DNA of 64,000 nt from a virus (IMGVR_UViG_3300046787_000286:16060-80059), one strand, 5' to 3'. Shown: positions 2,615 to 59,782, counted from the first letter of the stretch. The notes: generated by a model not told the origin, from the sequence alone. Program-made: numbers and translations.

Positions 2615-2630
2615 CCTAATTTAGGTTAAC

Positions 2631-2662
2631 CAAAAGGGCCTTAGGGCCCTTTACTTTTATTC
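2631..2662 (+). terminator. intrinsic terminator (GC hairpin + T-run)
   Basis: aagggcc-ttag-ggccctt hairpin followed by tttacttttatt, immediately after the fibre-like genes. Confidence 0.55.
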
Positions 2663-2684
2663 ATCCTTCCTGTATACTGTTTAA

Positions 2685-2990
2685 ATGAATACTGAAAACA
2701 TTGTTGCACACGCACGAGCTCGGTTTGATCACGAGAGTGCAAAACGAGTACTTAAAGAAAAATACCAGGCCAAACTGATATTTGCCCACAACGGCGGCAT
2801 GTTTAGAGCAACTCCTGAACTGCTTGCATTTGTGCAAAGCTGGCCTATTGCCGAACTGTATATTGCAGACTTGTATAACAACCCAATTGAAGTAGACAAA
2901 CAAGTATTCCTAGTAAAGTTGCAGCAACACTACCATGAACAAATGAATGCTTGGCATGTAGAGTATACAGAAATGAGCAACAAACGATGA
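2685..2990 (+). CDS. hypothetical protein
   Basis: 101 aa ORF; its stop overlaps the next start as ATGA. Confidence 0.4.
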   Translation: MNTENIVAHARARFDHESAKRVLKEKYQAKLIFAHNGGMFRATPELLAFVQSWPIAELYIADLYNNPIEVDKQVFLVKLQQHYHEQMNAWHVEYTEMSNKR

Positions 2991-3796
2991 CCACAGGCGC
3001 ACTGATATTTGCGTTCAACAATGAAAAAACTGATTACGTTAAGATGGCCACTTGGTGTGCTAAAAGGATTCGTGCGCACCTCGACATTCCGGTTGCAATC
3101 GTCACAGATAACACAAACAGTGGATTACATCAACAATTTGATCATGTCATTAACGCAGGAGCGCAAACCGGGGGTTCTAGATACTTTGAAGATTATGCAG
3201 ACTCTGTGTCGTGGCACAACGCCGGAAGAACTGACGCTTATAACTTATCTCCATTTGAGCAAACCCTTGTACTCGATTCCGATTACGTGGTCTGCGGTGA
3301 TCAATTACAGCAAGTCTTAAACGCTCCGCAGGACTTTCTAGCACATAGAGCAGCATTTAATGTTGCTCGCCCCGAAGAACCTTTTTTAGACACATTCGGG
3401 CGCAACAAATTTCCCATGTGGTGGGCCACAGTAATGATGTTTCGTAAAAGCCCTACAGCACAATACATTTTTGATTGTATGGAAATGATCAAACACAATT
3501 GGCAGCACTACAGAAACTTATACGGAATAACAGAACACCATTACCGTAACGACTATGCACTAAGCATTGCATTGGGTATTGTGAGTGGGCACACACTAAA
3601 AGTAGATTCGATTCCTTGGCCATTGATGAGTGCTATGCCTGATACAGAATTAACAAGAGACACGTATGGCAGTGCCGAAGCCTGGATCATGAAGTATGCA
3701 GGCCGTGACGGAAAGCCTAAAAGTGTTAGCATTGCAGGGCAAGACTTTCATGCAATGGGTAAAAAGTATTTGGAGGCAATAATTGACGCCAGTTGA
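2987..3796 (+). CDS. GT-A fold glycosyltransferase-like protein
   Basis: DxD-type motif (VLDSDYVV); N-terminal region paralogous to the next gene; start taken at the ATGA overlap (MTTGAL). Confidence 0.45.
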   Translation: MTTGALIFAFNNEKTDYVKMATWCAKRIRAHLDIPVAIVTDNTNSGLHQQFDHVINAGAQTGGSRYFEDYADSVSWHNAGRTDAYNLSPFEQTLVLDSDYVVCGDQLQQVLNAPQDFLAHRAAFNVARPEEPFLDTFGRNKFPMWWATVMMFRKSPTAQYIFDCMEMIKHNWQHYRNLYGITEHHYRNDYALSIALGIVSGHTLKVDSIPWPLMSAMPDTELTRDTYGSAEAWIMKYAGRDGKPKSVSIAGQDFHAMGKKYLEAIIDAS

Positions 3797-4559
3797 AGAA
3801 CGCGGATACATTATCCCTGCATTTAATGTTGGTAAGATTGACTATGTTGACTGTGCTAGATCGTTAGCAAAAACGCTGTTGCTGCATCATCCTGATGCTA
3901 GAATCTGTTTGTTAACCAACGACAAGTCGGCGACTGATCATCACTTGTTTGCTTACACGCACATAGTAGAAGACATTGATACTGCGAACCCTTATGCGAA
4001 TGACACACTGGTGTTTAGTCACACACCGTTTAGGCAAACAATTAAACTAGAAGCAGACATGATGGTTGCTAGTGCAGTTGACCATTGGTGGACACTGTTT
4101 GAACATCGTGATGTTGTTGTTAGTCGAGGCAGTAGGGACTTTTACGATCAACCTGCTACAAGTAGAAAGTATCGCAAACTGTTTGATAACAACAACTTGC
4201 CCGATGTGTACAACGCTATAACATATTGGCGAGTAAGCAAAACTGCCACAGATTTCTTTAAACTTGTAAGGAAAATCTTTACAAATTGGGAAAGCTACAA
4301 GATTTTATTAAAGTTTCCCGAGGAAGTACCGTCCACTGATGTAGTGTATGCAATGGCTGCACAAATATTGGGACCAGAACAAGTGACATTACCTCCAGGG
4401 CTAGGTCCACAGATTGTGCATATGAAGACTGGTATGAGTCCGTTCTCTGCGCCACATTGGACTGATGAATTAGTTTGGGAAATGAATCCGCTACGTATCC
4501 AAACTGTGGCGCAATGGGGCTTCGTGCATTTACATGTAAAGGATCGTATAGATGAATGA
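3783..4559 (+). CDS. glycosyltransferase-like protein (paralog of 2987..3796)
   Basis: shared IPAFN..K.DYV..CA N-terminal pattern with the upstream gene. Confidence 0.4.
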   Translation: MTPVEERGYIIPAFNVGKIDYVDCARSLAKTLLLHHPDARICLLTNDKSATDHHLFAYTHIVEDIDTANPYANDTLVFSHTPFRQTIKLEADMMVASAVDHWWTLFEHRDVVVSRGSRDFYDQPATSRKYRKLFDNNNLPDVYNAITYWRVSKTATDFFKLVRKIFTNWESYKILLKFPEEVPSTDVVYAMAAQILGPEQVTLPPGLGPQIVHMKTGMSPFSAPHWTDELVWEMNPLRIQTVAQWGFVHLHVKDRIDE

Positions 4560-4899
4560 AACTACACAAAACTTACTGGATGTATTTGCCAACTTAGCGC
4601 CCTGGCAACCGCCTGTTGTATTTTGGAGATTGCATTACGGTGAAGTAGGAGAGCCATTGTTTTACACCCAGGAAGATAAACCAGGTAATTACATTGATGT
4701 AACGCCTGAGCAATACCAACGTGCTAGCATGCAAGTTAAGGTAGTTAACAGGAAGTTAGTAGAGCTGTCAACTAAACGTACACGCAAGTTGATGCCTAGT
4801 ACAACAGGAACTCCTTGCTATCTCTCTGATGTTAGCATTGTTGTTCCAACAACTGAACAGCACCAGTGCTGGAGATTAAAAACAAATGAAACAAATTGA
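4552..4899 (+). CDS. hypothetical protein
   Basis: 115 aa ORF in a translationally coupled series. Confidence 0.4.
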   Translation: MNETTQNLLDVFANLAPWQPPVVFWRLHYGEVGEPLFYTQEDKPGNYIDVTPEQYQRASMQVKVVNRKLVELSTKRTRKLMPSTTGTPCYLSDVSIVVPTTEQHQCWRLKTNETN

Positions 4900-5812
4900 C
4901 ATCGCAGACTTAGACTGCATTTACCTATCGTATGATGAACCACAAAAAGAAGAGCATTGGGTCAAGATTAAGAACATGGTGCCTTGGGCACGAAGGGTCG
5001 ATGGCGTTAAGGGCAGCGATGCTGCTCACAAAGCAGCGGCACAGGCCAGTAACACTGATAGATTCATTCTCATTGATGGCGACAATCTCCCCGACCCGTC
5101 GTTTTTTAATCAAACGCTTGTTCTTCCTACAGAAGAATACGAGAACGCTGTTTTCCGCTGGCGGGCACGTAACAATATCAATGGACTAATGTATGGCAAT
5201 GGTGGTTTATCTTCGTGGACCAAGGAGTTTGTCCATAATATGCAGACTCATGAAGCTTCCGACGGACGCACCGAAACCCAGGTCGAGTTCTGTTTCGATC
5301 CCCTTTATTGGGCTATGCACGATTGTTATTCTACCACCTATCCCAATGGGAGTGCGTTCCATGCCTGGCGTGCAGGATTTCGCGAGGGTGTTAAAATGTG
5401 TCTTAACCGGGGTGCAAAGCCATCTGTTGCGGAGTTCCAAAGCCGTGTTCACAGCAAGAACTTGGATAACTTAACTATCTGGCACAACGTGGGTGCAGAT
5501 GTAGAATACGGTGAGTGGGCAATTGCAGGGTCACGTATGGGCACTTATATGACTATGTTAACAGCATGGGATTATACTGCGGTACAGAACTTTGACGAGT
5601 TAGAGAAGTTATGGGACACTGTTAAAGATGATAATCCAAGACATGTTGCGCTTAGAATCGCTACAGAGTTAAACGCACAACTAGACTTACCAATGATTAT
5701 TTTAGAATCTGAACAAAGTGCTTTCTTTAAGAAACACTACCTTTCTAACTGGCACAACCGTGGCATAATGGTTAGAGAGATTGATGTTATTAGACAACAA
5801 GAAGGCTGGTAA
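4886..5812 (+). CDS. hypothetical protein (glycan cluster)
   Basis: 308 aa ORF, contains FILIDGDN. Confidence 0.4.
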   Translation: MKQIDIADLDCIYLSYDEPQKEEHWVKIKNMVPWARRVDGVKGSDAAHKAAAQASNTDRFILIDGDNLPDPSFFNQTLVLPTEEYENAVFRWRARNNINGLMYGNGGLSSWTKEFVHNMQTHEASDGRTETQVEFCFDPLYWAMHDCYSTTYPNGSAFHAWRAGFREGVKMCLNRGAKPSVAEFQSRVHSKNLDNLTIWHNVGADVEYGEWAIAGSRMGTYMTMLTAWDYTAVQNFDELEKLWDTVKDDNPRHVALRIATELNAQLDLPMIILESEQSAFFKKHYLSNWHNRGIMVREIDVIRQQEGW

Positions 5813-5818
5813 CAGTTA

Positions 5819-7210
5819 ATGACCAAAAGCGTTTTTCAAAGCTCAGCAGATGAAATGCAAAGCAAGTTAGGTCCTGCAATGTGCCTTGCTAAATGGCAAC
5901 AAACCAGTTTACACTTAACTACAGGGCACACCAATTCATGCTATCATCCTCCGTTGCACAAAATTGAACTGAGTGACATAGAAAATAATCCGTCTGGATT
6001 GCATAACACTGAGCATAAAAAACAGCAACGTGTGATAATGCTAAAGAACGAACGCCCTTCAGAATGTTCCTACTGCTGGAACATGGAAGACCTGGGCAAA
6101 ACAAGCGATAGGCACTACAGATCAGGCGAACCTTGGGCAGCAGAACACTATGACACAATCAAAAACTCAACTGGACTCGAACGGGACGTTACACCTTCAT
6201 ACGTGGAGGTTAACTTTAATAATGCTTGCAATCTACGTTGCTCTTATTGCTCTCCTCAGTATAGTTCTAGCTGGGCCGATGAGTCCAATAGGCACGGCGC
6301 ATATCCTACTAGCGTACCTCATAACGCACCTGAATATTTTAGTGGCAGTAGGAGACCTATCCCGTCTAGGGAAGCTAATCCATACGTTGATGCGTTTTGG
6401 GAGTGGTGGCCGGAGCTTTACCCTAATCTAAAACATTTTAGAATGACTGGCGGCGAGCCACTAATGGATAAGAATACACACCGTGTATTAGATTACGTTA
6501 TAGCTAACCCCAGCCCGCAACTGCACTTGAACGTAACTTCAAACTTTTCAGTAGAAGAAGTACTGTGGCAAAAGTATCTAGACAAAGTCAAGCGCATTTG
6601 CGACGGCCGCATCGAACACTTTATGCAGTATGTGAGTTTAGATGGCTTTGGATCGCAAGCAGAATACATTAGACACGGGCTTGACTTTAGATTACTGTGG
6701 GACAGAGTAAATCAATTCTTAACAGAAGTTCCTGAGTATTCTAGTTTGACATTTATTGTAACAATGAATAATCTAAGCGTGAATTCATTCAGCAGCTTGA
6801 TGTCGGGCATATTTGGGTTGCGTCAGATATATTCTAAAACGTATCAACGTGTGTGGTTCGACACCCCTGTGCTTCGCGATCCTGCGTGGCAAAGTTTACA
6901 AATACTACCTGAAAGCTATGCTGACCGTTTGGAAACAACCTGGGCATGGATGGTAAATCCCTGTAAAGATGTGTCTGAGCCTAATCCGCTGCATGTGTTC
7001 AAGGACTATGAGCTTGCTAGATTAGATCGTGACATAGCGTGGATGCGTGAAGGGCAGAAAATGGACCCTGTGGAATTAAACAAGCGCAAAGCAGACTTCT
7101 ATCGTTTCTTTTCGGAGCACGATCGACGTCGCGGCACAGACTTCAATTTAATATTCCCTGAAATGAAATCATTCTGGCAGGAATGTGAGTACCATGCCAA
7201 AAACTCCTAA
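5819..7210 (+). CDS. radical SAM family protein, paralog 1
   Basis: CNLRCSYC (CxxxCxxC) and GGEP motifs; N-terminal C..C..CxxC; C-terminal D.RR..FPE motif. Confidence 0.7.
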   Translation: MTKSVFQSSADEMQSKLGPAMCLAKWQQTSLHLTTGHTNSCYHPPLHKIELSDIENNPSGLHNTEHKKQQRVIMLKNERPSECSYCWNMEDLGKTSDRHYRSGEPWAAEHYDTIKNSTGLERDVTPSYVEVNFNNACNLRCSYCSPQYSSSWADESNRHGAYPTSVPHNAPEYFSGSRRPIPSREANPYVDAFWEWWPELYPNLKHFRMTGGEPLMDKNTHRVLDYVIANPSPQLHLNVTSNFSVEEVLWQKYLDKVKRICDGRIEHFMQYVSLDGFGSQAEYIRHGLDFRLLWDRVNQFLTEVPEYSSLTFIVTMNNLSVNSFSSLMSGIFGLRQIYSKTYQRVWFDTPVLRDPAWQSLQILPESYADRLETTWAWMVNPCKDVSEPNPLHVFKDYELARLDRDIAWMREGQKMDPVELNKRKADFYRFFSEHDRRRGTDFNLIFPEMKSFWQECEYHAKNS

Positions 7211-8270
7211 GCTAGTGTTAGACACATTCTCAGAAGTATACAATCTACTAAAGCCTTATGCTGATGACGAATTCTGGGATTTGTCACAGCACGATATTAT
7301 CCCGGGCGCCACGTATGTTGTAGGGCGCAAGCAATGTATAGATCATCGCGAGCGTTTACTAGAGTTAGCAAATAACAACACTATACAGCTAGTTATAAGC
7401 AACCCGCACGAAGGTTCGCAAACACTAGCAGGGCAAATGACACGTCTGGGGTTCAAGAACGCCAACATCAAGCTAATAGGCGGGGGCAACATGCCTGCAG
7501 ACTGGGACTACATACTCTACGATAAGTTCCTGCCCGAAATACTGGACTACGAAGAAAACTTGATAGCAGCAGACTCTACTCTTGCAATATACAACAAAAC
7601 ATCTAAGCCATACCAGTTTCTTTTTCTAAATGGCAGAGCTCGCCCACATAGGGCAGACTTAATTCGCAAGCTCGCTACCAGATCATTGCTAAACAACAGC
7701 TTGTGGACCAATCTAGACTCAGGAAATGGTGCTGTGCAAACACTGCACCCAGCTTACGAAGTTCCTCGCTATAGAAACAATGCCACAACTGATCACTATG
7801 TCAAGTTCGAATTGTTTAATAATGAATGGGGAGAAATCTATTTAGAACCTGCGCCTTATATTGATACCTATTTTAGTTTGATAACAGAAACAGTATTTGA
7901 TATTCCTTATAGTTTCCGCACAGAAAAGATTTGGAAACCCATTGTTATGGGTCATCCTTGGATAGCAGTGGCCAACGCAGGCTTTTATAGAGACATGCGC
8001 AACCTAGGCTTCCAAACATACTCGCATCTAATAGACGAATCCTTTGACAGTATTGAAAATAATACAGACAGATTGGATAGAATAGTCGATATAGTAAAAG
8101 ATTTATGCAGTCAAGACCTTGCGGCTTTCTTGCAAGAGTGCTATAATACTAGTAAATACAATCAGCAACATCACAGGGAAATGGCCGCAAAGGTCCGAAA
8201 AGAATTTCCCGAACGCTTTTTCCAATTTATCAATGAACGATCTAGAATACCGCCAGCAAGTACTGGATAA
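7185..8270 (+). CDS. glycosyltransferase-like protein (TEK motif, fucosyltransferase-like)
   Basis: ETVFD..YSFRTEKIWKPIVMGHPW resembles the GT10 'ENS..TEK..PI..G' signature; two paralogs at 18810..21126. Confidence 0.4.
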   Translation: MSTMPKTPKLVLDTFSEVYNLLKPYADDEFWDLSQHDIIPGATYVVGRKQCIDHRERLLELANNNTIQLVISNPHEGSQTLAGQMTRLGFKNANIKLIGGGNMPADWDYILYDKFLPEILDYEENLIAADSTLAIYNKTSKPYQFLFLNGRARPHRADLIRKLATRSLLNNSLWTNLDSGNGAVQTLHPAYEVPRYRNNATTDHYVKFELFNNEWGEIYLEPAPYIDTYFSLITETVFDIPYSFRTEKIWKPIVMGHPWIAVANAGFYRDMRNLGFQTYSHLIDESFDSIENNTDRLDRIVDIVKDLCSQDLAAFLQECYNTSKYNQQHHREMAAKVRKEFPERFFQFINERSRIPPASTG

Positions 8271-9561
8271 ACTTTCACCTAGCTTTTGTGCTGCCAAATG
8301 GTACAATGCTACTATATGGCTGGGCTCAGGGCAAACAACCAGTTGCCATCACCCTCCTGCACATGCCATAGATGCAGAAGCAGTTAAAACAAACCCTGCT
8401 GCATTGCACAATACCAAACAAAAGAAAATTGATCGTTTAATGATGCAAAATGGGGAAAGACCCTCAGGTTGCGAATACTGTTGGAAAATTGAAGACATGG
8501 GAGTAGATGCAGTTAGCGATCGTGTGTACAAATCCAAGATATATCCCATAAAGGCTTTAAATGACGCATACTCGACACCTGCTGCACATGACGTGGATCT
8601 CCGTACTTTGGAGATTGCTTTTGATCGTACTTGTCAGTTTGCTTGTAGCTATTGCAACCCAGCATTTAGTTCTACATGGGTTAATGATATTAAACGTAAC
8701 GGACCCTACACTAACTTGGTTAGCGATGGTAGGAATCACTTCACTCATACTCATGAGTCTAGTCAGCTATATCGCTACGGGGAAACCAATCCGTATGTTG
8801 AGGCATTTTTTGACTGGTGGGAATCGAGCTTACATAGAACACTTCAAGAGCTACGAATCACAGGAGGAGAGCCCCTCATGTCCGCCCACACATGGAAGCT
8901 CATTGATTGGTTCAAAACAAATTCGGGCAAGAGTAATACACGCTTGGCTATCAATAGTAACCTCGGGACTGAGGTCGACGTCACACGTTTACTGGAATCC
9001 ACGCAGGGTCTAGACGTAGAAATATACACTAGCATGGAAGCTGTAGGTGCGCAAGCTGAATACATTCGCGACGGACTTGTATATGCAGACTGGCAAGCAA
9101 ACGTAGATAAGCTGTTAAACGCAGGTGTTACAGTACACTTTATGGCAACCATTAATGCTCTTTGTTTGGAAACTCTAACAGATCATTTAAATTACTTGCT
9201 GACCTTGAAAGAATTATACGGGCGTGATCGTGTTAATTTTACATTAAATATTCTACGCTTTCCGTCATTTCAAAGTGCTCTAGTACTGGATCCAGATGAT
9301 CGCACCTATTTTAAATTGGCGTTGCAGTCATGGCTAAACGCCAACGGCAACAGCCCTTTATTGCACGAACACGAAGTTAATCACACACAACGATTAATTG
9401 ATTACTTGGACATTGTTAAAACACCGCACTCGGATACGTTTGACATGCCCAAGTTACTGAATGACTTTAAACATTTCTACGAGCAATACGACCTGCGTAG
9501 GAAAAAGAATTTAAAAGAAACATTCCCTATTATTGGATATTGGTATAATTTATGTCTATAA
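8233..9561 (+). CDS. radical SAM family protein, paralog 2
   Basis: FDRTCQFACSYCNP, ITGGEP; start chosen at MNDLEY by N-terminal alignment to paralog 1. Confidence 0.7.
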   Translation: MNDLEYRQQVLDKLSPSFCAAKWYNATIWLGSGQTTSCHHPPAHAIDAEAVKTNPAALHNTKQKKIDRLMMQNGERPSGCEYCWKIEDMGVDAVSDRVYKSKIYPIKALNDAYSTPAAHDVDLRTLEIAFDRTCQFACSYCNPAFSSTWVNDIKRNGPYTNLVSDGRNHFTHTHESSQLYRYGETNPYVEAFFDWWESSLHRTLQELRITGGEPLMSAHTWKLIDWFKTNSGKSNTRLAINSNLGTEVDVTRLLESTQGLDVEIYTSMEAVGAQAEYIRDGLVYADWQANVDKLLNAGVTVHFMATINALCLETLTDHLNYLLTLKELYGRDRVNFTLNILRFPSFQSALVLDPDDRTYFKLALQSWLNANGNSPLLHEHEVNHTQRLIDYLDIVKTPHSDTFDMPKLLNDFKHFYEQYDLRRKKNLKETFPIIGYWYNLCL

Positions 9562-11255
9562 CCCAGACTTTAACAACATTGCGTGAACAATACAATGTGC
9601 TAGCAGTGGTCGATTTAGACCAAACTGCTAGCATGAGTTATTCAGACATGCAAGATTGGCTGCGTAATCAGTGTCAATCCTTGTATGCGCCAGAGTTCAA
9701 CCCAGGCGACAAAATTATTTTTACTTACTCAACAGACACGTATGTAAATGATGATAAGATTGGGTTATTGATTCGCAATTTACAAATATCCATACTTGCA
9801 GTTGATATTAGTACTGCATTTATCACAGTGGTTAGCACAAACCCAACGTTGCTAGCAGAACTAAAGCTAGTGCAAGCAATGAGTGAACTAGATATAGCAA
9901 TTGACGGTGTAGTAGTTGATGCGCCTTGGAACAAAAAAATTGTCAACAAGTACCCTAGCTCTATTAGGGAGTTGTACGATTATGATTCTGTTAACCCATT
10001 AAAGATGTCAATTAATGATTTAAGTGATCGCGAGAGGTCATTGCTTACCAAAAGTAAAGTATTTTGCATATACCCTTGGACACATTTAAATGCAGGTCCA
10101 GACGGACAGGCGTACCCGTGCTGCATGACTGATTTTAAATGTTCTGTGGGGGACACTAAAAAAGATACTCTGGCTACTATATGGAACAATGACCCAATGA
10201 AGCAGGTGCGCTTAGACATGCTAAACGAAACGCCCATTGAAGGATGTAGCCGCTGTTACGAACAAGAAAAGTCGGGCTTTGTTTCTGGCAGAATCAGTGC
10301 AAACAAGCACCACGGACATCATATTAGCAAGGTACTAGAAACCAACCCCGACGGTAGCCTGGACCAATTTAAAATGGTGTACTGGGATATTCGATTTAGT
10401 AACTTGTGTAATTTACGGTGCCGTAGCTGTGGGCACATTTACAGTAGTCAATGGTATCAAGATCAGGCCAAGCTAGCAGGGCCCGCCTGGGCAATTAACA
10501 ATCAAGTGTTGAATTATGCAGGGCGCACCGAAACAGATATGTGGGAACAATTAGAACCCCATTTAGAGTACGTGGAGCAGATTTATTTCGCGGGCGGTGA
10601 GCCATTACTAATGGAAGAACACTATAACATTCTTGAAGAATTACTCAAGCGTGGCCGCACAGATGTTCGATTGATATACAATACAAACTTTACGCACACT
10701 AAGTTAAAGGACAAGTATGTGTTTGAATACTGGAAAAAGTTTGATAGTGTTAGCGTAGGTGCAAGTTTAGACGCAATGGGCCCACGTGGCGAGTATATTA
10801 GAAAAGGCACAAACTGGGCGCAAGTTGAACGCAACAGAGAAAAGATGCTTGAAATTTGCCCGGGTGTTGATTTTTATATTAGTGCAACCCTGAGCATTCT
10901 AAATGCCAAACACCTGCCGGACTTTCATAAAAACTGGGTGGAGCGTGGACTTATTAAAACTCAGGACTTTAACGTAAACATTCTATTAGATCCTTCGTAC
11001 TATCGAATTGACATTGCATCAGAACAGTACAAAGAAGAAATAGCTGCACTGTATCGCGAACACTTGTTCTGGATTGAACAACACGGTGATCATCTTGGCC
11101 GTGCTACTACAGGATTTGAATCAGCTATTAAGTTAATGAATGCAACGGACAACAGCACGTTAATTCCCAAGTTCTGGGAAAAGACTGAGCAGTTGGATGC
11201 TTTAAGAAATGAAACATGCTTGGATATCATACCTGAATTAAAGGCGCTAAAATGA
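9552..11255 (+). CDS. radical SAM family protein, paralog 3 (with N-terminal extension)
   Basis: FSNLCNLRCRSCG, FAGGEP; extra ~170 aa N-terminal domain. Confidence 0.7.
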   Translation: MSITQTLTTLREQYNVLAVVDLDQTASMSYSDMQDWLRNQCQSLYAPEFNPGDKIIFTYSTDTYVNDDKIGLLIRNLQISILAVDISTAFITVVSTNPTLLAELKLVQAMSELDIAIDGVVVDAPWNKKIVNKYPSSIRELYDYDSVNPLKMSINDLSDRERSLLTKSKVFCIYPWTHLNAGPDGQAYPCCMTDFKCSVGDTKKDTLATIWNNDPMKQVRLDMLNETPIEGCSRCYEQEKSGFVSGRISANKHHGHHISKVLETNPDGSLDQFKMVYWDIRFSNLCNLRCRSCGHIYSSQWYQDQAKLAGPAWAINNQVLNYAGRTETDMWEQLEPHLEYVEQIYFAGGEPLLMEEHYNILEELLKRGRTDVRLIYNTNFTHTKLKDKYVFEYWKKFDSVSVGASLDAMGPRGEYIRKGTNWAQVERNREKMLEICPGVDFYISATLSILNAKHLPDFHKNWVERGLIKTQDFNVNILLDPSYYRIDIASEQYKEEIAALYREHLFWIEQHGDHLGRATTGFESAIKLMNATDNSTLIPKFWEKTEQLDALRNETCLDIIPELKALK

Positions 11256-12637
11256 GCGCCTGGGCAGAGTTTTACAACAGTATTCGCGATCCTTCATGGC
11301 CGGATTGTAACAGTGAAACTGACTTTAAAACCTTGCCGCAGCACATACAGCAAGAGTGTTGTGAAGTATTTGGCTATGAGCCTGGCCACTTTGCAACCCA
11401 CAGTAAGTTGCCCAATCGAGTATTTCCTATAAAGACTGAAACTGCTTGCCAATTAAAATGGAATTGGAGTACTGTGTTCTTAACGTCTGAAGAAACTGCC
11501 AGTTGTCACAGAACAAATCATCACAAGTTTGACACAGGCTTGTTTGATTTTCACAATACTCCTTCCAAGCTGGATGATCGTGAACAAATGCTGCAAGGTA
11601 AATGGCCCCAGGCAGGCTGTGACTACTGTAAGAATATAGAAGACGCAGGCGGCGCCAGTGATCGTATTACCAATTTAGATTTCCCGGGCATGCATGCACC
11701 TGTTGAATTAGATCAAGACCCTACTGCTGTTAATGTAACGCCCAGGATACTAGAAGTGTATTTTGACAATACCTGCAACTTAAAATGCTTGTATTGCGGC
11801 CCGCACTTTAGTAGTTTGTGGGACGCTGAAAACGTACGAGCAGGTATCCCAGCATTCAATAAAAGTGCAAACATTGAACAAAATAAACAAAAGCTGTTTG
11901 ACTGGCTAAAGTTAAACCGACAGCATCTCGGTGTGTTTAATATACTAGGCGGTGAACCATTGTATCAGCGCGAGTTGGAGCAGTGTTTAGACTTGTTTGA
12001 ACAATACCCTGCGCCGGACCTAAAGCTACAAATCTTTACCAATCTAAATGCCAAATTGTTACATGTACAAAAGATAGTAGAACGTGTAAACTCGCTAATA
12101 GATAGCGGGTGTATTAGGGAGTTTGAAGTTACTGCTAGTCTTGACTGTTGGGGAGAGCAGCAGGAGTATGTGAGATACCCATTAGACTTAGCAGTTTGGG
12201 AACGTAATTTTGAATACCTGCTGAGTCAACGCTGGATCAATTTAATTGTTAGCTCAACAGTTACTCCTTTAACTATTAAAACTCTACCTGAGCTGCTGTT
12301 AAAAATTCAAACATGGAACAAGACTAGGCCTGTGTATCATTATCAGAACTCTGTAAACAGCCCTAGCTATTTGTTCATTGATATATTTGGGGATATATTT
12401 AGAAATGATTTTGATCGTGCTGTTGCACTAAAACCCGCAACTACCCCCGAAGAAGTTGCTAGTAAGAATTATCTACAAGGCATTGCAGCACAGTCTGCAC
12501 ACGCAGGTGCAAACATAAAAGAAATCAGCAAGTTGTTTAATTTTTTAAATACTATAGACCAAAGAAGAAATACCAATTGGTCAACCACATTCCCCTGGCT
12601 TGTTAATGAGTTTAACAAATACGGATTAATTAAATGA
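11252..12637 (+). CDS. radical SAM family protein, paralog 4
   Basis: FDNTCNLKCLYCGP, ILGGEP; ATGA overlap with the upstream gene. Confidence 0.7.
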   Translation: MSAWAEFYNSIRDPSWPDCNSETDFKTLPQHIQQECCEVFGYEPGHFATHSKLPNRVFPIKTETACQLKWNWSTVFLTSEETASCHRTNHHKFDTGLFDFHNTPSKLDDREQMLQGKWPQAGCDYCKNIEDAGGASDRITNLDFPGMHAPVELDQDPTAVNVTPRILEVYFDNTCNLKCLYCGPHFSSLWDAENVRAGIPAFNKSANIEQNKQKLFDWLKLNRQHLGVFNILGGEPLYQRELEQCLDLFEQYPAPDLKLQIFTNLNAKLLHVQKIVERVNSLIDSGCIREFEVTASLDCWGEQQEYVRYPLDLAVWERNFEYLLSQRWINLIVSSTVTPLTIKTLPELLLKIQTWNKTRPVYHYQNSVNSPSYLFIDIFGDIFRNDFDRAVALKPATTPEEVASKNYLQGIAAQSAHAGANIKEISKLFNFLNTIDQRRNTNWSTTFPWLVNEFNKYGLIK

Positions 12638-13842
12638 ATATTCCACACGATAAATTTTGCGTACTACCTTGGATCAGCTTAGAAGCATCACCCATTGGTA
12701 CTGTGCGCCCATGCTGTTTGGCAAAATATGAACTGTACGACAATGATGGCAGCAAGTTTAATCTAGCCACAGCTAAGTTTACTGGCATACAGAACTCTAC
12801 AGAAATGCGCTCGTTGCGCGAACAGTTCCTAGAAGGCACAAAGCCTGCCACATGCGAAAAGTGCTGGGCCGAAGAAGATGCCGGACGTACATCAAAGCGT
12901 ATGCACACACTAGATAGACTAAAGCACATGGGCATTACAGGGGACTGGACTACAGATGCCAAGCCTTTAATGTTCTTGGACCTAAAGCTGGGCAACATCT
13001 GTAACCTAAAGTGCCGTATATGCGGGTCATGGTCAAGCTCACAGTTTGCGTCAGAAGAACTAAAGTTTGTGTCTGACAAAAAGAATTCATTCCATTATCA
13101 AATGCTTCGAGACGGTGCATGGCCCAGGGAAAACGAATCATTTTGGACAGAAATAGATAATGCATTAACAGATATTCGTTACATTGAATTCACTGGTGGG
13201 GAGCCATTTCTAATACAAGAACACTTTGATATGCTGCAAGGCATTGTGGATCGTGGTATTGCGCACAATGTAGAAATACATTACAATACAAATGGCACTC
13301 AATACCCTGAGCAAGCCGAGCAGATCTGGAAGCACTTTAAAACCGTGGAAATTGCATTTTCAATTGATGATCTAGACACACGCTTTGAATACCAACGCTC
13401 TAACGCTGTGTGGGCAGAAGTATGTGCTAACCTAGATCGATTCCGCGACTTAAAAGAAACACATGCCAATATCAAGCTACAGATATGCACCACTGTAAAT
13501 GTGTTTAATGTGTACTATATAGATCAAGTTGCAGATTGGATTGCTAACAATAGAGAATCCTTTGATTTTGTATACTGGAATATGTTACACGAAATTTGGT
13601 ACTTCTCTATCAGTCGATTGCCCCACACAGTAAAAACAGTGCTAGAAACACATTTAAACTCCTGTGCTATTCCCACTGAGTTTGTGGGAGAGTTTAAAAA
13701 GATTATTGATTTTATGAACAACGGCGAATCATCAGATGGCTCTGCTATGTTAGCAGCAATGAAACAATTGGATCAACGTAGAAATCAGAACTTATCACAC
13801 GTAATGCCAGAGCTGGCAGGATTAATTGGTTATGACATTTAA
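12634..13842 (+). CDS. radical SAM family protein, paralog 5
   Basis: LGNICNLKCRICGS, FTGGEP; ATGA overlap. Confidence 0.7.
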   Translation: MNIPHDKFCVLPWISLEASPIGTVRPCCLAKYELYDNDGSKFNLATAKFTGIQNSTEMRSLREQFLEGTKPATCEKCWAEEDAGRTSKRMHTLDRLKHMGITGDWTTDAKPLMFLDLKLGNICNLKCRICGSWSSSQFASEELKFVSDKKNSFHYQMLRDGAWPRENESFWTEIDNALTDIRYIEFTGGEPFLIQEHFDMLQGIVDRGIAHNVEIHYNTNGTQYPEQAEQIWKHFKTVEIAFSIDDLDTRFEYQRSNAVWAEVCANLDRFRDLKETHANIKLQICTTVNVFNVYYIDQVADWIANNRESFDFVYWNMLHEIWYFSISRLPHTVKTVLETHLNSCAIPTEFVGEFKKIIDFMNNGESSDGSAMLAAMKQLDQRRNQNLSHVMPELAGLIGYDI

Positions 13843-14938
13843 ATGTAAACTACCCTGGCAGGCTCTGCACATTGTAACAGGTATGATCGCTCCTTGTTGC
13901 AATTTTTCAAGGGTAGGTCCACCGCCAGCTAGTCTTGACGAATATATCAACAGCGCAGAACTAAAGTCTATTAGACAGCAACTGTCGCAAGGGGTAGCTC
14001 CTCGGGAGTGCAAGAACTGTGTTCACGAAGAAAAGATTTCTGGACACAGTCATAGAACTCTTTCAAATCGATTTGAAAATAATGATCCTGTGTATGAATT
14101 TGAAAATGTGTCTATTGTTACTAGCAATACATGCAATCTAAAATGCACTAGCTGCACGGGTAATAGCAGTTTTGTTCGTGGCTTAGAATTAACAAAAATG
14201 GGTCTAGCCGCCAAGTCACCAGGACATTTTACTCATACATTAGATATTGATGCGCTAATAAATTACCCCATTAAATCATTAACAATATCTGGTGGCGAGC
14301 CATTTGTTGATAGTACTAGAGAAGTGCTGGACAAACTTGTGCATGCGGGCCGCAGCACTGTGATTGATCTAAGACTAAATTCAAACTGCACAATGATAAC
14401 ACGTGACTGGTTAGAGTATCTTAACAGTAACTTTAAATCAACCATGATCAAGGCCAGCTTGGATGGAGTAGGCGCAGTTAATGATTATTTGCGTTACCCC
14501 AGTAACTGGGATGAAATTGCAGCAAACTTAGCAATGCTCAAAGAATACCCACGCATTACTGCTGTGTTAGTAACCAGCGTATTGAGTAATCTAAGCGTGA
14601 TTAGATTTCATGATCTTATCAATTGGTGTGTTGATAACAACATTGAAGATCTAGTGGTATTAACACTTCGTAACCCTGTACACATGCAACCACATGTGCT
14701 ACCTGCAGAGCTAAAGCAACAACTGTTATTGACATATACTGAATTGAGAGAAAAACACAAACACGCTGGAGATCGCATTGTGGAATGTATTGATACATGT
14801 ATAGGGATTTGTAGCAATCAAACCTCCACTGCTGATGAATTCACTCGCGCACTAGAATGGTATCAAGCACATGATCGCCATCGCGGCAATAACATATTTG
14901 ATGTATTCCCAGAATTAAAACCATATGAACAAACCTGA
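13826..14938 (+). CDS. radical SAM family protein, paralog 6
   Basis: TSNTCNLKCTSCTG, ISGGEP. Confidence 0.7.
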   Translation: MVMTFKCKLPWQALHIVTGMIAPCCNFSRVGPPPASLDEYINSAELKSIRQQLSQGVAPRECKNCVHEEKISGHSHRTLSNRFENNDPVYEFENVSIVTSNTCNLKCTSCTGNSSFVRGLELTKMGLAAKSPGHFTHTLDIDALINYPIKSLTISGGEPFVDSTREVLDKLVHAGRSTVIDLRLNSNCTMITRDWLEYLNSNFKSTMIKASLDGVGAVNDYLRYPSNWDEIAANLAMLKEYPRITAVLVTSVLSNLSVIRFHDLINWCVDNNIEDLVVLTLRNPVHMQPHVLPAELKQQLLLTYTELREKHKHAGDRIVECIDTCIGICSNQTSTADEFTRALEWYQAHDRHRGNNIFDVFPELKPYEQT

Positions 14939-16220
14939 CACAATGTGTTTAGCGCCGTGGGTGCATACATATCTAAGCCCGCAAACAGAGCGTAGAATGT
15001 GCTGTGCGAGTCGCGAACCTGCACAGAACTTTACCCAGTATATAGACACTGGCGCCGGTACCGGGAAATACATTCCTTTAACACTGGAGCAGCACTGGAA
15101 TAGTGACCACATGAAGAGTGTGCGTAAAAGAATGATGAACGGGGAAACTCTCCCAGAATGTGAAGTATGCAATGACCGACTCCTTAACACTTCAGTATAC
15201 CGCACCTACTTCGATCATTTATTTCAGCACAAACTCCCCGAAGTTTACGCTACAACGCTGGAGGATGGTTTCACGACTATGGCTCCTGTATCGTGGGATT
15301 ATAGGTTCAGTAACTTATGTAACTTCAAGTGCAGGACCTGCGGAGATATGCTATCATCAGCCTGGGAATCAGAGCAGAAGACTCATAGCATGGTTAATTG
15401 GCACGACAGCAAAAACAATTGGATGGTACCCGAAATTCGCAAAGAGATATCACAATTTCAGGATGGTGAGATTGAGGCCGAATTTAGTGCGGCTGTAGAA
15501 AATCATTCAGTAGAAGAAATATACTGGGTAGGTGGAGAACCGCTGATGTACGAACAGCATTGGCGCTATATGAAAAGAATTGTGGAGCTGGGTGATGGAC
15601 CTAAACTATACGCTAGATACAATACTAATTTGTCTAGAATTAGCTATCGGGGTATATCTCTTTATAGGGATATCCTCGCTCATGTACGGGATTGGCAGAT
15701 ATGTGCTAGCTTGGATGGAACTAACGAAATCGGTGAATATATTCGTACAGGACTGGATTACAAACAGTTCTTTGATAATTTTGAATACGGATTACAACAT
15801 GCAAAGCACCGCAGACAAATGCGTATTGACTTTACCCTCACACTACCCGGGATGTTCGAGACTGGTGCGATACAACGCCTGGCTCAGTACTGGGGCGTGG
15901 AACTACTAAGCAAGGTAATCTTTAGCTTTAGTCCAGATATCATAATGAGTCCGCTGGCTCTGCCCCGGCACATACTGCATCCTTGGCTAGATGAATTGAT
16001 TGCAGAATGTACTCAAGACAGCATGCGTGATGTATTAACACAGCTAAAGAACCGCCCTACGTTTGATGAACAATGGCCAAATGAGTACCAAGCAGCTCTT
16101 GCTCGAGGCCGGGCTCGTGTGTTAAAATTAGAACAAATACGCACACAAAAAGTAACCATGACTGACATATTGAGTCAGCGTAAAGATGTATTAGAATGGT
16201 GGATGAACATTGAAACTTGA
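14925..16220 (+). CDS. radical SAM family protein, paralog 7
   Basis: FSNLCNFKCRTCGD, WVGGEP; the start may instead be at MCLAPW (14943). Confidence 0.7.
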   Translation: MNKPDTMCLAPWVHTYLSPQTERRMCCASREPAQNFTQYIDTGAGTGKYIPLTLEQHWNSDHMKSVRKRMMNGETLPECEVCNDRLLNTSVYRTYFDHLFQHKLPEVYATTLEDGFTTMAPVSWDYRFSNLCNFKCRTCGDMLSSAWESEQKTHSMVNWHDSKNNWMVPEIRKEISQFQDGEIEAEFSAAVENHSVEEIYWVGGEPLMYEQHWRYMKRIVELGDGPKLYARYNTNLSRISYRGISLYRDILAHVRDWQICASLDGTNEIGEYIRTGLDYKQFFDNFEYGLQHAKHRRQMRIDFTLTLPGMFETGAIQRLAQYWGVELLSKVIFSFSPDIIMSPLALPRHILHPWLDELIAECTQDSMRDVLTQLKNRPTFDEQWPNEYQAALARGRARVLKLEQIRTQKVTMTDILSQRKDVLEWWMNIET

Positions 16221-17250
16221 TGAAATTGAAATCACCCTGCGTGGCAAAGACAGTGAGTTAACTGTTTACATAGACATAGATAACAACAGTCTAAGCCGTA
16301 AATGGCTGGGTGCATTAAATCATTTAATTGCAAATGATTATCATTTAGAAAAGAATTACTGCTGGCTAGGGTGGACAGGGACAGAAAGATCAGTTGATTT
16401 ATTGTGTCAAAACATTAACCGTAGTGTTGAGCATATTAACCGCAGCGCATTAGACTATTACATAGCTACAGATCCATTTACCTCTGCTAATGTAGTAGAT
16501 GAAAAGCTAGGTGTAAACCACGAGCGCATGAATCTGCTGCATCGTTGGTTTGAAGACCTGCAAGGATGGTCTGGCAGTATCTCAAACCACTATAACAGTG
16601 CAGACACAGAAACACGCTGGCATATACGTCAATTAAATCTCCTGTGCCACGAGCTAGAAAGCCTTGTGTTAAGCATACGCAAAGACTCAACAGCACCAGA
16701 ATGGAAGCGCCCTAGTCAATTAATGTGTTGGCTAAATGCTCCACGTTATGAATTAGAGGAAGAAGATTATGAGCTCTTTGGGGTTGATACTATTAATCGT
16801 AGTCTCGGTGGTGTGTATGTGGGAGTTAATAAAGCAGTGGGCAAACATCATTGGGAAGTGTTCTGTGACGAAGGCAGAGATAGTAGAATTGGTGAGCTGG
16901 TTACTAGTTCCTTACGTTCGCAAACTCAAGCCGCTGGGGACTTTGATATTGAATGGGCCCGTGACCCTGGAGCGTTTCACTGGCAGATCAAACAACTGGG
17001 TGAGTTTAAAGAGTGGCTTACAAATAACGGGTTCGACCCAGACGATAAGCACCTTACAATCGGGCACCCGCAAGTGGGACAAGTGGATCTCAACAGGTCG
17101 TTTGGGTCAACTGACTATCGAGAGATATGGCGCCAGCTATCCACTAAGCTGGATGTGTATAAAATACGCACATCATCTGCTGAAGCTATATATGATTACA
17201 GATGGTCGGATATCGATTATGCTAAACAACAACAAAGGTATTTAAAATGA
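16210..17250 (+). CDS. hypothetical protein
   Basis: 346 aa ORF coupled to the radical SAM array. Confidence 0.45.
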   Translation: MKLDEIEITLRGKDSELTVYIDIDNNSLSRKWLGALNHLIANDYHLEKNYCWLGWTGTERSVDLLCQNINRSVEHINRSALDYYIATDPFTSANVVDEKLGVNHERMNLLHRWFEDLQGWSGSISNHYNSADTETRWHIRQLNLLCHELESLVLSIRKDSTAPEWKRPSQLMCWLNAPRYELEEEDYELFGVDTINRSLGGVYVGVNKAVGKHHWEVFCDEGRDSRIGELVTSSLRSQTQAAGDFDIEWARDPGAFHWQIKQLGEFKEWLTNNGFDPDDKHLTIGHPQVGQVDLNRSFGSTDYREIWRQLSTKLDVYKIRTSSAEAIYDYRWSDIDYAKQQQRYLK

Positions 17251-17344
17251 AATGGATTAAAAATCTATGGGCAAGGATCACGTTAGAAATACGTTATCGT
17301 AAAAAACTAAAAGAACTACGTAAACGCGACCCATTTATCTACAA

Positions 17345-18826
17345 ATGAATACACTAGGCATATCAGCAGGGTTTCATGATGCAGCAGCGTCTGTAATTGA
17401 CCGCGACGGTAACATACTGTTTGCCAGTCATTCTGAACGTTATAGTAAACAAAAGAGTGACTCAGATATTTCGTTAGAAATGTTAAACGAAATAGATATG
17501 AGTACTGTAGATACCATTGCGTACTACGAGCGTCCTTTAGTTAAACAACTACGTCAATTTTATTCCGGACAAGGGATTGAGTGGGATAAGCTAACTACTC
17601 GACAAGTATTAGAACAACAGTTGGGCTACAACAGAATTGGCAATCGCAAGCTAAAAAGCTACAATCATCACTTGTGTCATGCAGCCGCAGGCTTTCAAAC
17701 CAGCTCGTTTGATCGTGCTACTGTAGTTGTGATTGATGCAGTAGGCGAGTTTGAAACCATTACTATATGGGGAGCAGAATATGATAAACACGGTCGTGCA
17801 AAGTATAAGAAACTTTGGCAACAACATTACCCACATTCAATTGGACTCTTTTACACTGGAGTTACTCAGCGGGTTGGCCTACGCCCACTAGACGAAGAAT
17901 ACATTCTAATGGGAATGGCAGCATACGGCAGTAACGACGTTAGTAATCGCATGCGTTATGATCTAATAGACGACGAATGGGAAATACGTTTCAAGGAGAA
18001 CTTGCATCTAGGACTGTCAGTTAAATATCTAAGCGATTATTCAGACTTTGATATTGCTGCCGGCGCACAAGACTTGGTAGAAGACCTGATACTCAACGTT
18101 ATGGTTCGAGCAAGAAAGTTCAAGTGGAGCAGTAATTTAGTCTACATGGGCGGTGTTGCTCTTAATTGCTCTGCTAATAGGAGAATTGGAAATTATTTCG
18201 ATAATATATGGATTATGCCTAATCCTGGCGATGCTGGCAGTAGTCTTGGCGCTGCCGCTTTGGCTCATGGGCGTAAAATTAACTGGAGCAACGCTTATCT
18301 CGGGCATGATATTCCTGGTGCTTATCCTGTTAACGACATACTTGATGAGCTACTTGTTCGGAAGATTGTGGGAGTGGCTTCCGGGAGAGCCGAGTTCGGT
18401 CCAAGAGCACTTGGAAACAGAAGCCTGCTTGCAGATCCTAGAGGCAGCGAGATTAAGGAGAAAGTAAATGACATTAAACGTAGACAACAATTCAGACCAT
18501 TTGCGCCCGTTATTTTGGAGGAACTGGCTGATACTTACTTTGATATGCCTCGTGGCTTCAGTAATAGTAGGTATATGCAGTCAGTCGCTCGTTGTAGGGT
18601 ACCTGAGTTATTTCCTGCTATCGTTCACGCTGACGGCACTAGTCGTGTTCAGACAGTGCCGAAAGATGGATCAGGCATTAGAGAACTGCTTGAAAAATGG
18701 TACGTAATGACTGACTGCCCCATGTTGCTTAACACAAGTTTAAACATACGTGGGGAGCCTATGGTTAACGATCGAGCAGACGCTGACCGCTTTGAACGAG
18801 AGTATGGGGTTAGAGTATGTTCTTAA
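17345..18826 (+). CDS. carbamoyltransferase (NodU/CmcH family)
   Basis: N-terminal MNTLGISAGFHDAAASVID..HSERYSKQK and overall architecture typical of O-carbamoyltransferases. Confidence 0.7.
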   Translation: MNTLGISAGFHDAAASVIDRDGNILFASHSERYSKQKSDSDISLEMLNEIDMSTVDTIAYYERPLVKQLRQFYSGQGIEWDKLTTRQVLEQQLGYNRIGNRKLKSYNHHLCHAAAGFQTSSFDRATVVVIDAVGEFETITIWGAEYDKHGRAKYKKLWQQHYPHSIGLFYTGVTQRVGLRPLDEEYILMGMAAYGSNDVSNRMRYDLIDDEWEIRFKENLHLGLSVKYLSDYSDFDIAAGAQDLVEDLILNVMVRARKFKWSSNLVYMGGVALNCSANRRIGNYFDNIWIMPNPGDAGSSLGAAALAHGRKINWSNAYLGHDIPGAYPVNDILDELLVRKIVGVASGRAEFGPRALGNRSLLADPRGSEIKEKVNDIKRRQQFRPFAPVILEELADTYFDMPRGFSNSRYMQSVARCRVPELFPAIVHADGTSRVQTVPKDGSGIRELLEKWYVMTDCPMLLNTSLNIRGEPMVNDRADADRFEREYGVRVCS

Positions 18827-46164: not shown

Positions 46165-46240
46165 GCACACTTACAGGACTCGAACCTGACGACCAGGGCA
46201 ATAGCCCTAGCTATGAATCCAACCATATCAGCGTGGCCTA
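46165..46240 (-). other. tRNA-like element (T-arm CAGG-TTCGAGT-CCTG), unresolved
   Basis: canonical T-loop but I could not build an acceptor or anticodon stem. Confidence 0.25.
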
Positions 46241-46288
46241 CGCCTTTATGTGCATGTGTTTAAAGACTTTGTTACTGTCTAAGTATCT

Positions 46289-59328: not shown

Positions 59329-59361
59329 CGCCTTGCAAGTTACTTACGTTGACACAAAAGG

Positions 59362-59776: not shown

Positions 59777-59782
59777 ACAACA

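Follow-up and report, generated by a model that had tools for sequence, protein, structure and literature searches.

An array of N-terminal twitch-domain radical SAM paralogs beside sugar-modifying genes in a jumbo-phage lineage

Introduction

What might a phage do with eight radical S-adenosylmethionine (SAM) enzymes, seven of which are encoded almost side by side? This question is raised by a 64,000-nucleotide stretch of viral DNA, IMGVR_UViG_3300046787_000286:16060-80059 (hereafter the window; all coordinates are counted from its first letter unless they belong to another named locus). Seven paralogous open reading frames (ORFs) for such enzymes, here called rSAM1 to rSAM7, lie on the + strand in 5819-16220, and an eighth occupies 46333-47541. 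All eight ORFs were verified at these coordinates, and a six-frame scan of the window gave no further ORF with a CxxxCxxC motif in a radical SAM context. An earlier note on this DNA had placed the genes in a glycan-biosynthesis context. Here, we show that the proteins belong to a named family in which a twitch domain precedes the catalytic core, and that five of them form the conserved core of a jumbo-phage gene cassette. Successive tailoring of sugars is the best available reading of its function, drawn entirely from gene context.

All eight proteins belong to one family with an N-terminal twitch domain

All eight copies passed the NCBIfam model NF033640 (N_Twi_rSAM, “twitch domain-containing radical SAM protein”), scoring 227-396 bits against a cutoff of 170. 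The matches ran from end to end, each covering approximately positions 1-397 of the 398-position profile. Because every copy scores this well on one curated, full-length hidden Markov model (HMM), their kinship is far beyond chance, at pairwise identities of 18-32%. The motif combination, which the earlier note had been unable to match to a named radical SAM subfamily, can therefore be given a name. Among the Pfam and NCBIfam models searched, no well-characterized subfamily with a non-glycan function was passed by any copy; the only subfamily to be passed was NF033640, which comes without a described function. The copies are as follows, with type A N-termini defined by C-x2-KW … SC(Y/H)H and type B by C-x2-PW … CC:

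rSAM1, 5819-7210 (+), 463 aa, type A, NF033640 score 319.6 bits, core
rSAM2, 8233-9561 (+), 442 aa, type A, 283.4 bits, core
rSAM3, 9552-11255 (+), 567 aa, type B, 395.5 bits, core
rSAM4, 11252-12637 (+), 461 aa, type A-like, 226.7 bits, accessory, ATGA overlap with rSAM3
rSAM5, 12634-13842 (+), 402 aa, type B, 341.4 bits, core, copy used for the structure model
rSAM6, 13832-14938 (+), 368-370 aa, type B, 235.8 bits, accessory
rSAM7, 14925-16220 (+), 431 aa, type B, 282.3 bits, core
rSAM8, 46363-47541 (+), 392-402 aa, 246.8 bits, detached, in a tRNA array and on the strand opposite to the tRNAs

The most likely start codons of copies 2, 6, and 8 are ATG 8233 (over TTG 8119, where the ORF opens), ATG 13832, and ATG 46363, respectively. 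rSAM3 carries an N-terminal extension of about 165 aa (9552-10050) without a family match, which is missing from its orthologs in the related loci L002 and L003 (420-422 aa) and kept in the homologs P0130 and P0131.

Each protein has the CxxxCxxC motif and the GGE-type SAM-binding motif that mark the radical SAM superfamily, and the catalytic motifs are intact. In an alignment of the eight copies, which covers their full lengths (A1, copy-1 numbering), the invariant positions include four N-terminal cysteines (C22, C41, C83, and C86), the CxxxCxxC cysteines (C137, C141, and C144), S149, and the GGEP motif (G211-G212-E213-P214), as well as N242, S273, Y283, R285, and R438. The N-terminal cysteines, CxxxCxxC, and GGEP are thus common to all eight proteins, as the earlier note had stated, and the cluster ligands are kept in 8 of 8 copies, none having lost them. 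Some of its finer detail did not hold: the cysteine of its N-terminal “C-x3-W” is present throughout, but the tryptophan is absent from copy 8; the distance between CxxC and CxxxCxxC is 38-51 residues rather than about 55; and of the carboxyl-terminal “D(Q/R)RR…FPE” motif, one arginine is invariant while the rest is not, with copy 7 lacking the FPE part. When 52 paralogs and orthologs were compared, 19 positions were invariant in all, among them the seven cysteines, GGEP, and four arginines, which may mark a common anionic handle, such as a diphosphate.

The four invariant N-terminal cysteines sit ahead of the radical SAM core. Pfam recognized the generic Radical_SAM domain only, plus a SPASM domain above the gathering score at the N-termini of copies 3 and 5 (residues 172-236 of rSAM3, E 2e-12). 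When a profile of the N-terminal domain was compared with the PDB, the best match was the twitch domain of BtrN, with all four cysteines aligned; at an E value of only 0.26, this may be taken as corroboration, not proof. In an AlphaFold2 model of rSAM5 (predicted local distance difference test score 89.6), the N-terminal region forms a beta-hairpin followed by helices around the four cysteines. Each copy is a partial triosephosphate isomerase-barrel SAM radical core with a twitch (half-SPASM) domain before it, not after it, and the four cysteines should together hold one auxiliary [4Fe-4S] cluster.

Other family assignments fared poorly. The viperin family (NF038283/TIGR04278) scored 17-37 bits against cutoffs of 180 or 450, and the MoaA, NirJ, mycofactocin rSAM, PapB, and BlsE models all stayed far under their own NCBIfam cutoffs. 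Neither a recognition element of ribosomally synthesized and post-translationally modified peptides (RiPPs), i.e., an RRE/PqqD-like domain (Pfam and NCBIfam), nor a B12-binding domain (PF02310; Pfam) was found in any of the eight copies. Since no copy has a cobalamin-binding domain, C-methylation, one of the reactions suggested earlier, is unlikely for these enzymes. The related islands L002 (2413-3807) and L008 (20794-22290) encode an additional B12-binding radical SAM protein, for which the window has no gene. If C-methylation occurs in such pathways, that gene is the likelier candidate.

The family is large. In a profile search, the sequences with E <= 1e-30 made up about 7,450 clusters when grouped at 50% identity. 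Fused proteins are numerous among them: single polypeptides of 800-1,466 aa with two or three complete N_Twi modules, from bacterial and metagenomic sources (P0121-P0128 and P0241-P0285; L007, 10001-12763; L008, 9782-12601). Such fusion suggests that the modules work jointly. In BFVD, the full fold was found in about 20 uncultured Caudovirales proteins (query-normalized TM-score, TMq, 0.75-0.82), with more distant fold matches in Vibrio phages KVP40 and phi-pp2. A full-text literature search and the PDB yielded no published paper or solved structure for NF033640, and the family is not treated in the amoC jumbo-phage preprint or the cyanophage S-SCSM2R paper.

Five copies form the conserved core of a jumbo-phage cassette

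From 4886 to 18826, each gene overlaps the next by 4-38 nt, save for one 6-nt gap (5812/5819), and ATGA-type 4-nt overlaps occur at three places (11252, 12634, and 17247/17345). The head-to-tail order with ATGA or small overlaps described earlier was therefore found, and the packing fits a single, translationally coupled operon, coupling being what the packing suggests. All eight copies were also as described, but the seven are not an unbroken tandem, as copies 1 and 2 are split by a non-rSAM gene, g358 (7194-8270).

The window belongs to a 214-kb JGI contig, on which proteins identical to copies 1 and 3 are encoded; the contig is that of a jumbo phage from an abundant lineage. Orthologs of copy 5, at 63-77% identity, were found in 163 IMG/VR stretches, on contigs of up to 349 kb, and more than 120 metagenomic protein clusters were found at >=70% identity. 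Conservation was scored in 48 IMG/VR loci with full ±10-kb flanks, counting as an ortholog any protein with at least 45% identity. rSAM1, rSAM2, rSAM5, rSAM7, and the carbamoyltransferase encoded downstream of the array have an ortholog in all 48 loci, and rSAM3 in 47. Lower counts were obtained for three companion genes introduced below: g346 (43/48), g308 (40/48), and g381 (38/48). rSAM4 has an ortholog in a single locus, and rSAM6 in none. From these counts, it follows that five enzymes make up a conserved core of the cassette, to which individual lineages have made additions of their own, and that this is no hypervariable island. The number of N_Twi modules per locus was five in 37 of the 48 loci, six in 7, seven in 3, and nine in 1.

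Each of the five core copies forms its own ortholog group, with a median identity of 65-71%. Copies 1 and 2 are 38-47% identical to bacterial homologs and at most 32% identical to their own paralogs; rSAM1 shares 47% identity with a bacterial fused homolog, and rSAM2 shares 53% with RsoM2USA_202 of Ralstonia phage RsoM2USA. Because the core copies are nearer to their orthologs, and copies 1 and 2 to bacterial and RsoM2USA homologs, than to their sister paralogs, the array reflects an old diversification and not a recent duplication, just as the earlier note had argued from the low identities.

rSAM8 has a different history. It lies between the tRNA genes at 46165-46253 and 48488-48563, its GC content is 0.356 against 0.429 for the window, and no close relative was found in IMG/VR. 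Together with an overlapping ORF of 155 aa (47502-47969, +; function not assigned), it makes up a low-GC insert (0.36-0.38) in the tRNA array, which was probably acquired recently by horizontal transfer.

A megablast search of the array against GenBank phages gave no match. A phage-type island, with 67-68% identity to rSAM1 and homologs of g258, g308, g358, and g601, is present on two contigs (L213 and L214; NZ_JBBAKG010000001.1 and NZ_JBBAKG010000003.1) that measure 183 and 148 kb and were assigned to a metagenome-assembled genome (MAG) of a Haliscomenobacter sp. Either these contigs come from a jumbo phage placed in the wrong bin, or they hint at a host in the Saprospiraceae.

Companion genes include a carbamoyltransferase and GT-B-fold proteins

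The genes that flank and interrupt the array are the following (GT, glycosyltransferase):

g308, 4886-5812 (+), directly upstream of rSAM1, possibly GT-A-like, with a sub-threshold Pfam match to Glyco_tranf_2_3 (E 0.005, residues 43-80, “FILIDGDN”)
g358, 7194-8270 (+), 358 aa, predicted GT-B-fold glycosyltransferase between rSAM1 and rSAM2
g346, 16210-17250 (+), conserved, with an 11-nt overlap with rSAM7 and no match in Pfam, NCBIfam, PHROGs, or PDB sequences
Carbamoyltransferase, 17345-18826 (+), NodU/CmcH/TobZ-type, 493 aa, Pfam Carbam_trans_N (E 3.6e-36) and Carbam_trans_C (E 2e-46), core
g396, 18810-20000 (-), GT-B paralog of g358 (hhalign of alignments A4 and A7: probability 99.7%, E 2.9e-26, 291 columns)
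g381, 19981-21126 (-), GT-B paralog of g358 in its carboxyl-terminal domain (hhalign of A4 and A6: probability 99.2%, E 2.4e-19)
g601, 21125-22930 (+), carboxyl-terminal half paralogous to g308, no family or PDB match
DegT/DnrJ/EryC1-family pyridoxal phosphate-dependent sugar aminotransferase, 22902-23990 (-), Pfam PF01041 over its full length (E 2.3e-62)
Short-chain dehydrogenase/reductase (SDR), nucleoside diphosphate (NDP)-sugar epimerase/dehydratase, 23935-24903 (-), Pfam Epimerase (E 7.7e-45) and GDP_Man_Dehyd (E 1.2e-35)

The carbamoyltransferase, the DegT aminotransferase, and the SDR epimerase/dehydratase, all named as flanking genes in the earlier note, are thus firmly identified by Pfam. 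The glycosyltransferases named with them hold for g358 and its paralogs, whereas the upstream one has just a sub-threshold GT2 match with its DxD element. A carbamoyltransferase also adjoins N_Twi genes in phage RsoM2USA, in the viral single-cell contig AG-345-D19, and in the bacterial locus L007.

The structure model of g358 shows the two Rossmann domains of a GT-B fold and resembles in fold the BGT and AGT glucosyltransferases of T4, a chlorovirus glycosyltransferase, and another phage GT-B enzyme. No Pfam, NCBIfam, or PHROGs model matched g358, g381, or g396, and tblastn searches of g358 and g396 against phages gave no match. The three proteins share a motif, “TETV…TEK(I/T)(W/F)KPI…LG(F/Y)(Q/R)T(F/Y)…D(E/N)S(F/Y)D”, that recalls GT10 fucosyltransferases, and related phage loci hold about three g358-type GT-B copies each. 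Together, they may constitute an unclassified glycosyltransferase family.

The relationship of g308 to the carboxyl-terminal half of g601 was detected with hhalign (A8 against A9: probability 99.1%, E 1.3e-18); g308 retains a GT2-like “DGD”, where g601 has “FAK”. Profiles of g308, g346, and g601 gave nothing meaningful against PDB sequences. For g346, g358, g381, g396, g601, and three ORFs at 1640-4559, searches of Pfam (to E 10), NCBIfam, and PHROGs gave only Pfam matches far below threshold and phrog_1903, a family whose function is not described and which matched the ORF at 3783-4559.

Bacterial homologs also occur among glycan genes

Homologs of the type A module (copies 1 and 2) were searched for in bacteria with an alignment of type A sequences only. 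Approximately 65 of the 80 loci recovered (L213-L292) came from MAGs of Bdellovibrionota, a phylum of predatory bacteria, including Bdellovibrio, Bacteriovoracaceae, Halobacteriovorax (among them Halobacteriovorax marinus), and Pseudobdellovibrio. In L008, a fused N_Twi gene lies next to genes for an SDR, a GHMP kinase, a nucleotidyltransferase, a DegT aminotransferase, a GT2, a split transketolase, and a B12-binding radical SAM protein; in L210, three N_Twi genes stand beside two GT2 genes. In L007 and L211, about five to six radical SAM genes (as assigned by Pfam Radical_SAM/SPASM) form an array, and it is the six-gene array of L007 that adjoins a carbamoyltransferase. A Pfam census of 145 neighbors within ±3 kb, drawn from 33 bacterial-MAG loci, mostly of Bdellovibrionota, was led by Radical_SAM (9) and Glycos_transf_2 (8) and also contained ABC transporter, carbamoyltransferase, and epimerase families, with no RRE/PqqD or RiPP-peptidase family in its top 25. 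As bacterial N_Twi loci have GT2 genes, carbamoyltransferase genes, or a complete NDP-sugar pathway for neighbors, the association with glycan genes is not confined to this phage. The glycan-biosynthesis context proposed earlier is therefore present in the window, in the form of carbamoyltransferase, DegT, SDR, and GT-B genes, and recurs around the bacterial homologs.

A 33-residue peptide is a probable partner of the carbamoyltransferase

One very small ORF stands out within the operon:

pep33, 17247-17348 (+), 33 aa, MKWIKNLWARITLEIRYRKKLKELRKRDPFIYK, between g346 and the carbamoyltransferase gene, with an ATGA overlap with both

Across 72 loci, hardly any change is seen in the last 21 residues of pep33, while the neighboring proteins are about 65% identical. 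Compared with L002, the last 22 codons differ by 8 synonymous and 0 nonsynonymous changes. The carboxyl-terminus reads …RKRDPFIYK; the copy in L005 lies at 15892-16014 (-), and an unannotated copy ending in …KQDPFIYK is present in the equivalent cluster of Ralstonia phage RsoM2USA. The pattern KDPFIYK followed by a stop codon was found in at least 120 IMG/VR stretches (L089-L208). Among the 120 matches listed, a carbamoyltransferase(-like) gene was present in 88, without exception on the strand of the peptide, mostly downstream of it, and in 29 cases immediately next to it, while an N_Twi gene was present in only 22. Because of this difference, we regard pep33 as probably belonging with the carbamoyltransferase and not with the radical SAM enzymes; for the carbamoyltransferase, it might serve as substrate, subunit, or docking tail. 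No ORF like pep33 was found in the vicinity of L007 and L008, two bacterial N_Twi loci, or of the N_Twi genes clustered in Vibrio phage K566. A tblastn search of GenBank phages with pep33 gave no match, probably owing to low-complexity filtering. A role as a radical SAM substrate was considered and downgraded, as the peptide tracks the carbamoyltransferase and not the radical SAM genes.

The same type of carboxyl-terminal motif is also found at the end of longer proteins whose N-terminal domains are unrelated. Another phage locus, itself unrelated, has a pep33-type peptide in a replication-type neighborhood, with a protein that has the Carbam_trans_N domain only.

Proposed pathway and alternative explanations

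We propose that the cassette carries out successive radical tailoring of the sugar units of a phage-made, carbamoylated amino-sugar glycan, a proposal to which we give an even chance of being correct. Each enzyme would form a 5'-deoxyadenosyl radical and take a hydrogen from a different sugar carbon, the sugar being an NDP-sugar or a glycan bound to a carrier or acceptor. The nearby auxiliary cluster would resolve the substrate radical through electron transfer, with outcomes such as oxidation to a keto-sugar, epimerization, dehydration/deoxygenation, or deamination, as in BtrN, HygY, AprD4, and DesII. The SDR and DegT enzymes would supply amino-deoxy sugar precursors; such a pair can yield NDP-sugars of the 4-amino-4,6-dideoxy type, the substrate class of DesII. 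The carbamoyltransferase would O-carbamoylate, and the three GT-B paralogs, possibly with the two g308-like proteins, would transfer the products. During infection, a glycan with many such modifications would be made and placed on a virion protein, the host envelope, or DNA. We infer the auxiliary cluster, the sugar substrate, the reaction types, the sequential action of the copies, and the acceptor. In a wider form of this proposal, which we regard as tentative and somewhat unlikely, NF033640 would be a large, unrecognized class of carbohydrate-modifying radical enzymes, and a widespread clade of jumbo phages with genomes of 330-350 kb would use a fixed cascade of five such enzymes, a carbamoyltransferase, and a 33-aa partner for making a new hypermodified glycan or glycopeptide on the virion or the infected cell.

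Several observations weigh against the sugar-tailoring proposal. That the substrate is a sugar would follow from the gene neighborhood, which is the sole ground for it, and from no feature of the enzymes. The DegT and SDR genes lie at the edge of the ±10-kb flanks in most of the 48 related loci and so fall outside the conservation score. There is no nucleotidyltransferase gene in the window, and NDP-sugars would for that reason have to come from the host. A single N_Twi gene is found in 21 of 34 full-length bacterial-MAG loci, several of these genes lying by housekeeping operons such as that of ATP synthase. The literature search returned no family member with a characterized function, and enzymes with twitch and SPASM domains very often modify peptides or proteins. 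Finally, the operon contains the ultra-conserved 33-aa ORF.

The last two points lead to a different explanation, in which the radical SAM enzymes are maturases of a RiPP-like peptide or a virion protein. They would install cross-links or epimerized or oxidized residues in pep33 or a structural protein, after which the glycosyltransferases and the carbamoyltransferase would decorate the product. Besides the twitch/SPASM architecture, weak secondary HMM matches to the mycofactocin rSAM, ScmE, PapB, SkfB, and anSME agree with this, as do the extreme purifying selection on pep33, its ATGA coupling within the operon, and the tail-fibre-like gene just upstream (337-1626). Mycofactocin provides a precedent, as a radical SAM-SPASM enzyme acts on a precursor peptide with a carboxyl-terminal tyrosine, and a GT2 acts later. 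However, the maturase HMMs give only 15-36 bits, with cutoffs set at 265-855, no RRE/PqqD or peptidase was found in the window or in the top families of the 145 bacterial neighbors, and pep33 both follows the carbamoyltransferase (88/120 listed loci) over N_Twi genes (22/120) and has no counterpart near L007, L008, or the Vibrio phage K566 cluster. We therefore consider peptide maturation improbable. It is less probable still, in our view, that the product of the cassette is a hypermodified nucleotide or DNA base, with the GT-B enzymes attaching sugars to phage DNA and the radical SAM enzymes acting on nucleotide- or DNA-linked substrates, so that restriction is evaded. T4 attaches glucose to hydroxymethylcytosine in its DNA, and the nearest solved relatives of the radical SAM core (viperin, MoaA, and BlsE) have nucleotide or nucleoside substrates; for several copies, viperin ranks second among the NCBIfam matches, and a thymidylate-synthase-fold gene lies 600 nt past the island. 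The viperin score nevertheless stays at 17-37 bits against a cutoff of 180, and the thymidylate-synthase-fold gene passes ThyA equivalog cutoffs without any sign of a hydroxymethylase. Nor were genes for a hydroxymethylase, a DNA kinase, DpdA, or preQ0 present among the annotated ORFs of the window, and the bacterial contexts, with GT2, ABC transporter, and NDP-sugar genes, are typical of surface glycans.

It could also be asked whether the copies are duplicates that have become redundant or are in decay, with only one or two of them functional. The distribution of rSAM4 (1/48 loci) and rSAM6 (0/48), and rSAM8 as a lineage-specific, low-GC insert, would be expected of such decay. Every cluster ligand and GGEP are kept in 8 of 8 copies, however, and the five core copies each have their own ortholog group (65-71% median identity, 47-48 of 48 loci). 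The paralogs had also split before spreading into phages and bacteria, and stable two- and three-module fusions occur, which leaves decay barely credible.

Other genes in the window

A tail-fibre-like gene (337-1626) precedes the island. The thymidylate-synthase-fold gene beyond it passes two NCBIfam equivalog cutoffs as ThyA (342.5 against 327 bits and 325.1 against 108 bits), and the hint of a hydroxymethylase that it had offered for DNA modification was rejected on those cutoffs. Between 43010 and 61135, the - strand encodes 37 tRNAs, two of which have odd anticodon loops, and a tmRNA (59346-59791). This array is interspersed with small ORFs, an RNA ligase gene (49082-50029), and an RNaseH-like gene (47980-48471), and could be a module for tRNA supply and repair. 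A 5'-3' exonuclease is also encoded in the window.

The best taxonomic anchor is a gene pair for a DUF2201 metallopeptidase/von Willebrand factor A (VWA) protein (32783-34090, -) and a MoxR-type AAA ATPase (37603-38694, -). Both proteins have their best matches in jumbo phages, among them RsoM2USA and the PA5oct-like phages; with its homologs in PA5oct-like Pseudomonas jumbo phages, the DUF2201 protein shares 48% identity. Elsewhere, an AhpC/peroxiredoxin gene (42115-42654, -) adjoins a CMD/AhpD-like gene (41600-42115, -); speculatively, this pair could shield the eight oxygen-labile Fe-S enzymes from peroxide. Ten further small ORFs at 24.9-41.5 kb gave no match to ferredoxin, flavodoxin, or Isc functions.

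Significance

NF033640 is a large family without a described reaction, in which the twitch domain comes first and which is prone to forming arrays and fusions. These arrays and fusions point to multi-step chemistry on one scaffold. With five distinct paralogs and candidate partners in a compact and conserved set, the phage cassette is a practical entry to the reaction. Should the product prove to be a glycan, we know of no earlier example of a virus-encoded glycosylation system that centers on radical SAM tailoring, and the finding would bear on phage-host recognition, on the evasion of immunity or defense, and on the chemistry of glycan natural products. A phage with eight Fe-S enzymes also raises the question of how clusters are supplied and protected from oxygen during infection, for which the AhpC/AhpD-like pair may be relevant. 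Should NF033640 indeed be a class of carbohydrate-modifying enzymes, oxygen-sensitive radical chemistry would be at work in phages whose relatives came from environmental metagenomes.

Comparison with known systems

Among characterized enzymes, a close parallel is BtrN, the 2-deoxy-scyllo-inosamine dehydrogenase of butirosin biosynthesis, which is the founding twitch-domain radical SAM enzyme and acts on an amino-sugar-like substrate. In BtrN, the C…C…CxxC twitch motif binds a single auxiliary [4Fe-4S] cluster, and the four N-terminal cysteines of the phage enzymes align with this motif. DesII, AprD4, and HygY have no specific sequence relationship to the phage enzymes, and an auxiliary cluster is missing from DesII. 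For viperin, BlsE, and MoaA, which are without the N-terminal twitch domain, only about 195 of 402 residues align. In contrast to the peptide maturases anSME, SkfB, PqqE, and MftC, the phage enzymes have the reversed domain order, four cysteines instead of the seven of SPASM, no RRE, and no precursor that is steadily linked to the radical SAM genes.

A T4-like marine environmental genome with 12 radical SAM genes has been discussed in connection with phage Fe-S cluster metabolism (Nishimura et al. 2017; PMC5332604). No family was assigned to those genes and no glycan context was described there, and the parallel does not imply that the two phages are of one lineage. As far as our searches show, the conserved jumbo-phage cassette of five radical SAM enzymes, a carbamoyltransferase, and GT-B proteins, with up to nine modules per locus, is undescribed. 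We know of no virus glycosylation system that uses a battery of radical SAM enzymes. In other respects, the systems that decorate mycobacteriophage virions, chloroviruses, mimivirus, and the DNA of T4 are like that of this phage, as read here from its genes: each virus brings its own glycosyltransferases and sugar-modifying enzymes.

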